Shown in pieces: positions 3,036 through 3,303 of a DNA stretch of 48,574 bases. The notes beneath the pieces are model-generated. The model did not search any database and was not told the DNA's origin. It saw only the letters and a list, made by a program, of their open reading frames with translations. Position 1 is the stretch's first letter; each line of letters opens with the position of its first letter. Location: the sequence record NZ_CP120968.1, one strand, 5' to 3'. The position numbers and the translations under genes are program-made. This DNA comes from a plasmid.

Positions 3036-3303
3036 TTTTAAACCCTCCTAAATAGCTGTTAGTGGTTGGAACGTATTTACTAAGGTAATTATTTCTAATT
3101 TTCTAAACTGGACATCAAGTGTCGACATTCTTCGAAGAGAATACTAATTACTAAGTAAAACTGCCTGTTTTAAGGACGACGTCAAGCGTCTAAACTTCTT
3201 ACGGCATATAGTTTCACCACTATTTAAAGTTTAGAACAAAACTAAAATAGTGAATCAACTATCCCGTCGGATAATCGATTCACTATAAAGCTTAGAATGT
3301 TTT
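3036..3303 (-). ncRNA. candidate IS110 bridge/seek RNA in the non-coding end upstream of the recombinase gene
   Basis: 268-bp ORF-free region 5' of the recombinase, as in IS110-group elements; internal inverted repeats (tagtgaatc..gattcacta; gacgcttgacgtcgtc); identical in copy 2 (23668-23935). No covariance test is possible from two near-identical copies. Confidence 0.3.

Follow-up and report, generated by a model that had tools for sequence, protein, structure and literature searches.

A predicted bridge (seek) RNA with an unusual guide layout upstream of the IS110-family recombinase of a Lactiplantibacillus plantarum plasmid element

The DNA analysed, referred to below as the window, is the whole stretch of 48,574 nucleotides from plasmid sequence record NZ_CP120968.1 and, judged by its identity to L. 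plantarum plasmids (up to 100%), is a plasmid of that species. When the ends are joined, the last 366 nt (48209-48574) plus the first 355 nt (1-355) form the inverse of 37391-38111, so the window is probably a closed circular plasmid with an inverted repeat of ~721 nt. A perfect inverted repeat of 860 nt (26061-26920/28494-29353, halves 1,573 nt apart) may represent two copies of another mobile element around a short segment. Three consecutive short ORFs of 85, 88 and 157 aa on the - strand at 3628-4675, where related plasmids annotate one gene for an ArdC-like ssDNA-binding protein, look like an ArdC-like gene broken by stop codons.

The window holds two copies of an IS110-family element, each with the recombinase on the - strand (Table 1). 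The repeat at 1619-3612 (1,995 bp) is found again at 22250-24242 with 97% identity, and gives no IS ends because both copies have flanking DNA in common. Exact ends were obtained from empty sites in other plasmids: plasmids were searched with the two IS flanks joined, and three of them (L001-L003) were aligned with the four junctions. The empty site reads CTGTATAATAGATTAAGCAGGAAGTTTTAAGGGCGG on the + strand, and both junctions (1642-1646 and 3299-3303) carry GTTTT, which in IS orientation is AAAAC. Comparison of empty with occupied sites showed that insertion was site-specific and without target duplication; 61 plasmid records carry at least 80% of the IS between the same flanks. This alignment confirmed the 268-bp left non-coding end (LE) of the original prediction, as well as its placement of the copy 2 LE, the sequence of which is 100% identical to that of copy 1; for the right end (RE), given there as 164 bp, 162 bp was measured. 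The two copies differ at 27/1227 positions of the ORF and 12/162 positions of the RE, versus 0/268 positions of the LE. The REs of the IS homologues all terminate TTGAC-N5-GT(A/G)G-(A/G)AAA, and since the left junctions of loci L015, L017 and L058 have only AAA before CATTCT, the crossover core must be an A-run of at most 3 nt. At one locus (L021, ~2370-2440) the RE tip is duplicated in tandem (31 nt). Subterminal inverted repeats of the IS1111 type were absent; between the terminal 60 nt, inverted matches reached at most 5 nt, a length attained by 99% of shuffles.

A TATAAT box (1623-1628, + strand) precedes the target by ~10 nt, and a small toxin ORF follows 79 nt downstream, with a match to the RatA-family antitoxin RNA at the 3' end of that ORF. 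The target is thereby the predicted point where transcription of a plasmid type I toxin begins. Each of the two IS copies sits in a locus of this kind (flanks 1619-1646/3304-3612 and 22250-22277/23936-24242), and by lying between the TATAAT box and the ORF the IS would separate the toxin from its promoter. The toxin locus is found in ~490 plasmid records, which makes it a widespread landing site. A third toxin locus in the window (37105-37395, - strand) is 84% identical to the IS-flanking locus, is without the target motif, and is unoccupied; elsewhere in the window no unoccupied IS target was found within 2 mismatches. A further toxin-antitoxin-like locus at 46294-46647 has a strong RatA match of 88 bits (46551-46640) adjoining a match to the rli28 sRNA (46294-46479).

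Table 1. Coordinates of the IS110-family element, its predicted RNA and guide segments, and the target locus in the window.
Feature	Position	Strand	Remarks
IS110-family IS, copy 1	1647-3303	-	1,657 bp, shared A-run core counted once
IS110-family IS, copy 2	22278-23935	-	intact 408-aa ORF 22441-23667, LE 23668-23935
Left non-coding end (LE)	3036-3303	-	268 bp
Right end (RE)	1647-1808		162 bp
Left junction	3299-3307	-	left target half-site + core, CCTTAAAAC in IS orientation
Right junction	1637-1646	-	core + right target half-site, AAAACTTCCT in IS orientation
DEDD/IS110 recombinase	1809-3035	-	408 aa, G--P----SG serine motif present (GIDPGRYQSG)
Predicted bridge RNA, copy 1	3059-3286	-	~228 nt, from consensus structure and covariance model
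Predicted bridge RNA, copy 2	23691-23918	-	sequence same as copy 1
5' stem-loop	3247-3286	-	18 bp, loop GACG, then U-run
Small hairpin	3228-3243	-	AGUUU/AAACU, in MFE fold
Three-way-junction closing stem, 5' strand	3211-3221	-	pairs with 3061-3072
Three-way-junction closing stem, 3' strand	3061-3072	-	
Predicted right-target guide (loop 1, 5' arm)	3192-3200	-	AAGAAGUUU, reverse complement of AAACTTCTT
Apical hairpin, target arm	3178-3190	-	GACG-CUUGA-CGUC
Predicted left-target guide (loop 1, 3' arm)	3167-3175	-	CCUUAAAAC, same 9-mer at left junction 3299-3307
Whole donor-binding arm	3076-3159	-	long basal stem 3151-3159/3076-3084, helices 5-8
Predicted right-donor guide (loop 2, 5' arm)	3125-3131	-	AGAAUGU, reverse complement of LE start ACATTCT
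Apical hairpin, donor arm	3111-3123	-	GACA-CUUGA-UGUC
Predicted left-donor guide (loop 2, 3' arm)	3098-3105	-	UAGAAAAU, equals RE end + core TAGAAAA(C)
Candidate -35, RE tip	1655-1660	-	TTGACT, conserved in all homologous REs
Candidate -10	3289-3294	-	TAAGCT, conserved as TAAsCT, 3/6 consensus match (weak)
29-aa type I toxin ORF	3383-3472	+	RefSeq "putative holin-like toxin" at uninterrupted sites
RatA-family antitoxin RNA match	3515-3605	-	at toxin ORF 3' end

The recombinase matched Pfam families PF01548 (4.8e-30) and PF02371 (3.1e-23) and the IS621 transposase in PDB (E = 2e-17). Its N-terminal domain can be aligned with IS110-group proteins; with IS1111-type recombinases, the C-terminal domain alone aligns. 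Proteins of the ISLhe4 family are ~50% identical to it and belong to the same recombinase clade. Through recombinase homologues of 35-99% protein identity we took 80 loci from species genomes, spanning Lactobacillus, Limosilactobacillus, Leuconostoc, Sporolactobacillus, Enterococcus, Jeotgalibaca and others, and the upstream regions of the homologues could be aligned over the entire LE.

Folding of the LE compared with shuffles gave z = -3.8. A consensus structure was derived using RNAalifold on 15 closer LEs and was scored on 34 non-redundant LEs, 19 of them unused in the derivation; RNAalifold on the raw 34-sequence MAFFT alignment gave just the 5' hairpin and one apical hairpin. In the consensus fold the 5' hairpin is followed by a three-way junction, in which an 11-bp long-range closing stem encloses two arms, each made of a basal stem, an internal loop of ~12+12 nt and a 4-bp apical hairpin, GACR-CUUGA-YGUC. 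Standard pairs filled 84.3% of the cells across the 34 LEs, versus 32-45% when the 3' partners were slid by 1-3 columns; compensatory changes were seen in 49 of the 59 base pairs, and 0/500 shuffles matched the observed values of pairing and covariation. By helix, compensatory changes occurred in 17/19 pairs of the 5' stem-loop, 10/11 pairs of the closing stem (helix 2) and 3/4 pairs of the target-arm apical hairpin (helix 4), where 92.6% of cells were paired; the donor-arm apical hairpin (helix 8) had 89.4% of cells paired. In the small hairpin, GTTT/AAAC becomes TTCT/AGAA in homologues. The two internal loops that the original prediction expected of such an RNA were found, with the backing of covariation in 34 LEs. 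Both of its inverted repeats exist: tagtgaatc/gattcacta is part of the 18-bp 5' hairpin and its halves lie at 3248-3256 and 3277-3285, and the second palindrome, put at about 3170-3185, is at 3176-3191.

A covariance model built from 14 homologues, leaving the window sequence out, gave two matches on the - strand, 3059-3225 and 23691-23857 (163 bits each, ~E = 1e-34), and matched nothing else anywhere in the window. The 5' end of the predicted RNA was placed from the candidate junction promoter described below and the 3' end was set at the end of the closing stem. Rfam 15 searched with 2950-3400, at gathering thresholds and at E<=10, returned noise only (snoRNA and miRNA families, 15-19 bits); either a bridge-RNA family is absent from that library or none reaches the LE sequence.

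Loop 1 is the predicted target-binding loop, its arms covarying with each element's own flanks. The target, in IS orientation, is ...CCGCCCTT-AAAA-CTTC(C/T)T.... The window letters aaacttctt at 3192-3200 have the reverse complement AAGAAGTTT, which agrees with the right flank at 9/9 positions for copy 2 (AAGAAGTTTT) and at 8/9 for copy 1 (AGGAAGTTTT); the RNA form, AAGAAGUUU, complements the top strand across the core and right flank (AAACTTCTT). The original prediction was right to match aagaagttt with the target flank, and the segment is assigned here as the right-target guide; beyond it, three further predicted guides are also present. The first of these, CCUUAAAAC, is identical to the top strand of the left flank and core, so it would pair with the bottom strand, as a left-target guide. 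In dinucleotide-preserving shuffles of the window's LE alone, 0.5% contained a 9-mer identical to the left flank and 2.2% a 9-mer complementary to the right flank. The targets are A-rich and consequently have a high background similarity to one another; among 28 distinct elements, the left-target guide agreed with its own left flank at 4.68/7 variable positions and with those of other elements at 2.97/7, and 0/20,000 permutations reached the observed total (p<=5e-5). For the right-target guide, the mean longest run of pairing was 5.96 with the element's own right flank versus 4.25 with others (23 elements, p<=5e-5), with examples at L032 (11/11), L071 (a 9-nt run) and L047 (10/11). The flanks of L020, L053 and L004 matched the target guides poorly. 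The IS at L004, in the chromosome of L. hilgardii, is 99% identical and may be an off-target or rearranged copy.

Loop 2 is the predicted donor-binding loop, the arms of which match the element's own ends. In IS orientation the joined ends read ...TTTACGTAG-AAAA-CATTCTAAGC.... The right-donor guide and the LE start matched perfectly in 29/34 homologues and covaried through four variants (ATT, ATA, AGA, AGT), the paired LE-start/guide changes being ATTCT/AGAAU, ATACT/AGUAU, AGACT/AGUCU and AGTCT/AGACU; in Leuconostoc and Fructobacillus the pair is TTACT/AGUAA, and four ISLhe4-like loci have one mismatch. The RE end and the left-donor guide covaried in three variants, GTAGAAAA, GTAGGAAA and GTGGAAAA: in distant homologues an RE with GTAGGAAA accompanies the guide AGGAAAU, and an RE with GTGGAAAA accompanies UGGAAAA. 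Single mismatches to the left-donor guide occur in L034, L039, L043 and L045, and its match is just 7 nt long, 4 of these being the A-run. The 3' ends of the four guides all meet at the short A-run core (no more than 3 nt), and for the window alone 0/3000 LE shuffles produced the four matches together.

The fold, the tracking of flanks by loop 1 and of element ends by loop 2, and the covariance model matches together argue for a bridge/seek RNA. We put the probability that the LE codes for such an RNA, of ~230 nt and on the recombinase-sense strand, at about 0.9. The central claim of the original prediction, a bridge (seek) RNA upstream of the IS110-family recombinase, is upheld by the fold, the covarying guides, the strand signal and the covariance model.

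The LE might instead be a mere 5' leader of the recombinase gene, serving termination, insulation or translational control, with flank matches that are coincidental; this we consider very improbable. It would fit with the 5' hairpin, which together with the following UUUUAGUUUUG scores as an intrinsic terminator and has a U-run conserved in homologues, with the closing stem ending ~10 nt short of the recombinase RBS (3044-3049), and with the two 7-nt donor matches, which singly are non-significant in LE shuffles (32% and 21%, window alone). A leader, however, gives no reason for the loops to follow the element's own flanks (p<=5e-5 for each target guide) or termini, or for variable positions to coincide exactly with the loops left unpaired in a conserved fold. 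A regulatory role of the 5' hairpin could exist alongside guide function. The terminator-like hairpin would be awkward if transcription began a short way upstream, and it may serve as an insulator of the integrated copy from outside transcription, or as an attenuator.

The internal copies of end and target sequence could also be sites in DNA, e.g. subterminal recombinase-binding repeats, rather than guides in RNA, since all four segments are direct or inverted copies of junction sequences; we hold this to be slightly more improbable again than the leader. Covariation of the RNA type in the surrounding helices, with many G-U pairs (202 G-U cells against 82 A-C cells in the recombinase-sense reading of 34 LEs), speaks against DNA sites, as do the absence of inverted repeats above 5 nt at or near the termini and the requirement for RNA shown experimentally in homologous systems (PMC11208160, PMC11187229). 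The same excess of G-U cells assigns the RNA to the recombinase-sense strand. A functional RNA from the + strand, antisense to the recombinase leader, was the least probable reading and was rejected upon the G-U/A-C counts and guide polarity: the + strand also folds well (z = -4.2) and Watson-Crick helices are strand-symmetric, but antisense pairing fell to 78.3% of cells from 84.3% in sense, the guides would meet the core with their 5' ends, an arrangement seen in no characterised bridge/seek RNA, and the conserved -35 and -10 halves point in the recombinase-sense direction.

For the bridge RNA on the recombinase-sense strand, a course of events can be proposed by analogy with IS621 and ISEc21. 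The element would leave as a circle, at the predicted junction of which, ...ACGTAGAAAACATTCT..., RE and LE are joined, and TTGACT, a 17-nt spacer and TAAGCT would make a promoter from which transcription would begin at the 5' hairpin. This candidate promoter, with a weak -10 (3/6), would arise only at the RE-LE circle junction; junction promoters of this sort are known from IS621 and ISEc21 (PMC11208160, PMC11187229). The 408-aa DEDD recombinase would bind the bridge RNA, and the complex would recombine the circle junction with the target 5'-CCTTAAAACTTCYT-3' without duplication.

An RNA of this kind is known for the group. According to the text of Durrant et al. 2024, bridge RNAs were predicted for 85.7% of the elements in the IS110 group. 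The related ISLhe4 stands in their Supplementary Table 5 as "LE, IS110" with a predicted bridge RNA, and in Supplementary Table 1 the 60%-identity cluster ISL4;ISLhe4;ISSsu7 has a representative near-identical to the recombinase of the present element (PMC11208160). For the ISLhe4 clade the text and supplement give the predicted location (LE) only, and no guide layout. The presence of a bridge RNA had therefore already been predicted in kind, in the entries for the ISLhe4 LE; what sets the present RNA apart is the unusual predicted guide layout, with an arm order opposite to that of IS621 and ISEc21.

In both loops, throughout the clade, the arm that pairs with the top strand is 5' and the arm that pairs with the bottom strand is 3'. 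To guard against a mistake in convention, we read an E. coli copy of IS621 in the same frame: there the left flank recurs as the 5' arm (AUCGGGCCU), and reverse-complementing the right flank gives the 3' arm (UGCGUAG). The IS621-like order (5' arm = left flank) was rejected for the Lactobacillus element, in which GUAAGAAGUUUA is without a match to CGCCCTTAAAAC. As an observation on IS621 itself, at L084 1480-1760 (E. coli NN5 chromosome, NZ_CP126348) an IS621 interrupts the left-target guide (ATCGGGCCT) in the bridge-RNA sequence of another IS621, with a 60-nt tandem duplication of the LE start; at this locus a guide sequence in IS621's own DNA is itself a target.

The element resembles IS621, as the latter is described in the texts of PMC11208160 and PMC11208158, in having the RNA in the LE upstream of a DEDD recombinase; a 5' stem-loop, target-binding loop and donor-binding loop in that sequence; guides with 3' ends that converge upon a short core; and half a promoter (here a candidate) in each element end. 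It differs in guide order, the right guide being 5' in the Lactobacillus element but 3' in IS621, where the left guide comes 5'; in the long-range closing stem that encloses the arms of its RNA in a three-way junction; in RNA length (~230 nt here, 177 nt for IS621 in those texts) and core (an A-run here, CT in IS621 in the same source); and in its recombinase of 408 aa, distant kin of the 326-aa enzyme of IS621. The seekRNAs of IS1111-type elements (ISEc11, ISPa11, ISKpn4) likewise have the segment complementary to the top strand 5' of the bottom-strand one (PMC11187229); those RNAs, however, are downstream of the recombinase gene, whereas the present one is upstream and the RE is a mere 162 bp, their elements have subterminal inverted repeats of 7-17 bp where none is seen here, and their recombinases form a separate clade. 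ISEc21, of the IS110 type (PMC11187229), shares the upstream non-coding region, the lack of a long sTIR and insertion without duplication, but its top-strand match is 3' of the bottom-strand match, not 5' as in the Lactobacillus element. The ISLhe4-like loci (L032, L038, L047) have the fold and guide layout in common with the element; ISLhe4 and ISL4 (ISfinder, IS110 group) have other guides and another target.

Siddiquee et al. 2024 separated IS110-type from IS1111-type families by guide order and RNA position (PMC11187229). The clade described here unites the upstream position, the absence of subterminal inverted repeats and the N-terminal domain of the IS110 group with the arm order of the IS1111 type. 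We suggest tentatively, at somewhat less than even odds, that these elements with recombinases of ~400 aa, in Lactobacillus, Leuconostoc, Enterococcus, Sporolactobacillus and relatives, represent a third bridge-RNA layout: upstream, with a three-way junction and IS1111-type arm order. The literature texts, figures aside, yielded no account of how guides are ordered in IS110 elements that come from Lactobacillus or have long recombinases; an example of the layout may be drawn in Fig. 6d or Extended Data Fig. 10c of Durrant et al. Since both loops are swapped, the recombination products would be the same as with the IS621 order; formally, the genes for the recombinase and the RNA face the recombination site in the opposite orientation to those of IS621. 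Should exchange begin on a fixed guide-defined strand, as reported for IS621 and CazIS110-1, the recombinase-antisense strand would be exchanged first here.

These results allow a predicted bridge-RNA mechanism to be read straight from the sequence of an element on a food-grade Lactobacillus plasmid, an IS that lands in a conserved plasmid addiction module, in the leader of a widespread type I toxin gene. With all four guides, the core and the target assigned, the element becomes a candidate programmable recombinase native to lactic acid bacteria. The reversed order breaks the simple rule by which an upstream RNA goes with bottom-then-top guides and a downstream RNA with top-then-bottom guides, and gives a concrete case for asking what sets guide order and the first strand exchanged. 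If true, the third layout could mark an evolutionary intermediate between IS110 and IS1111, and could supply a Gram-positive bridge recombinase with AT-rich targets.
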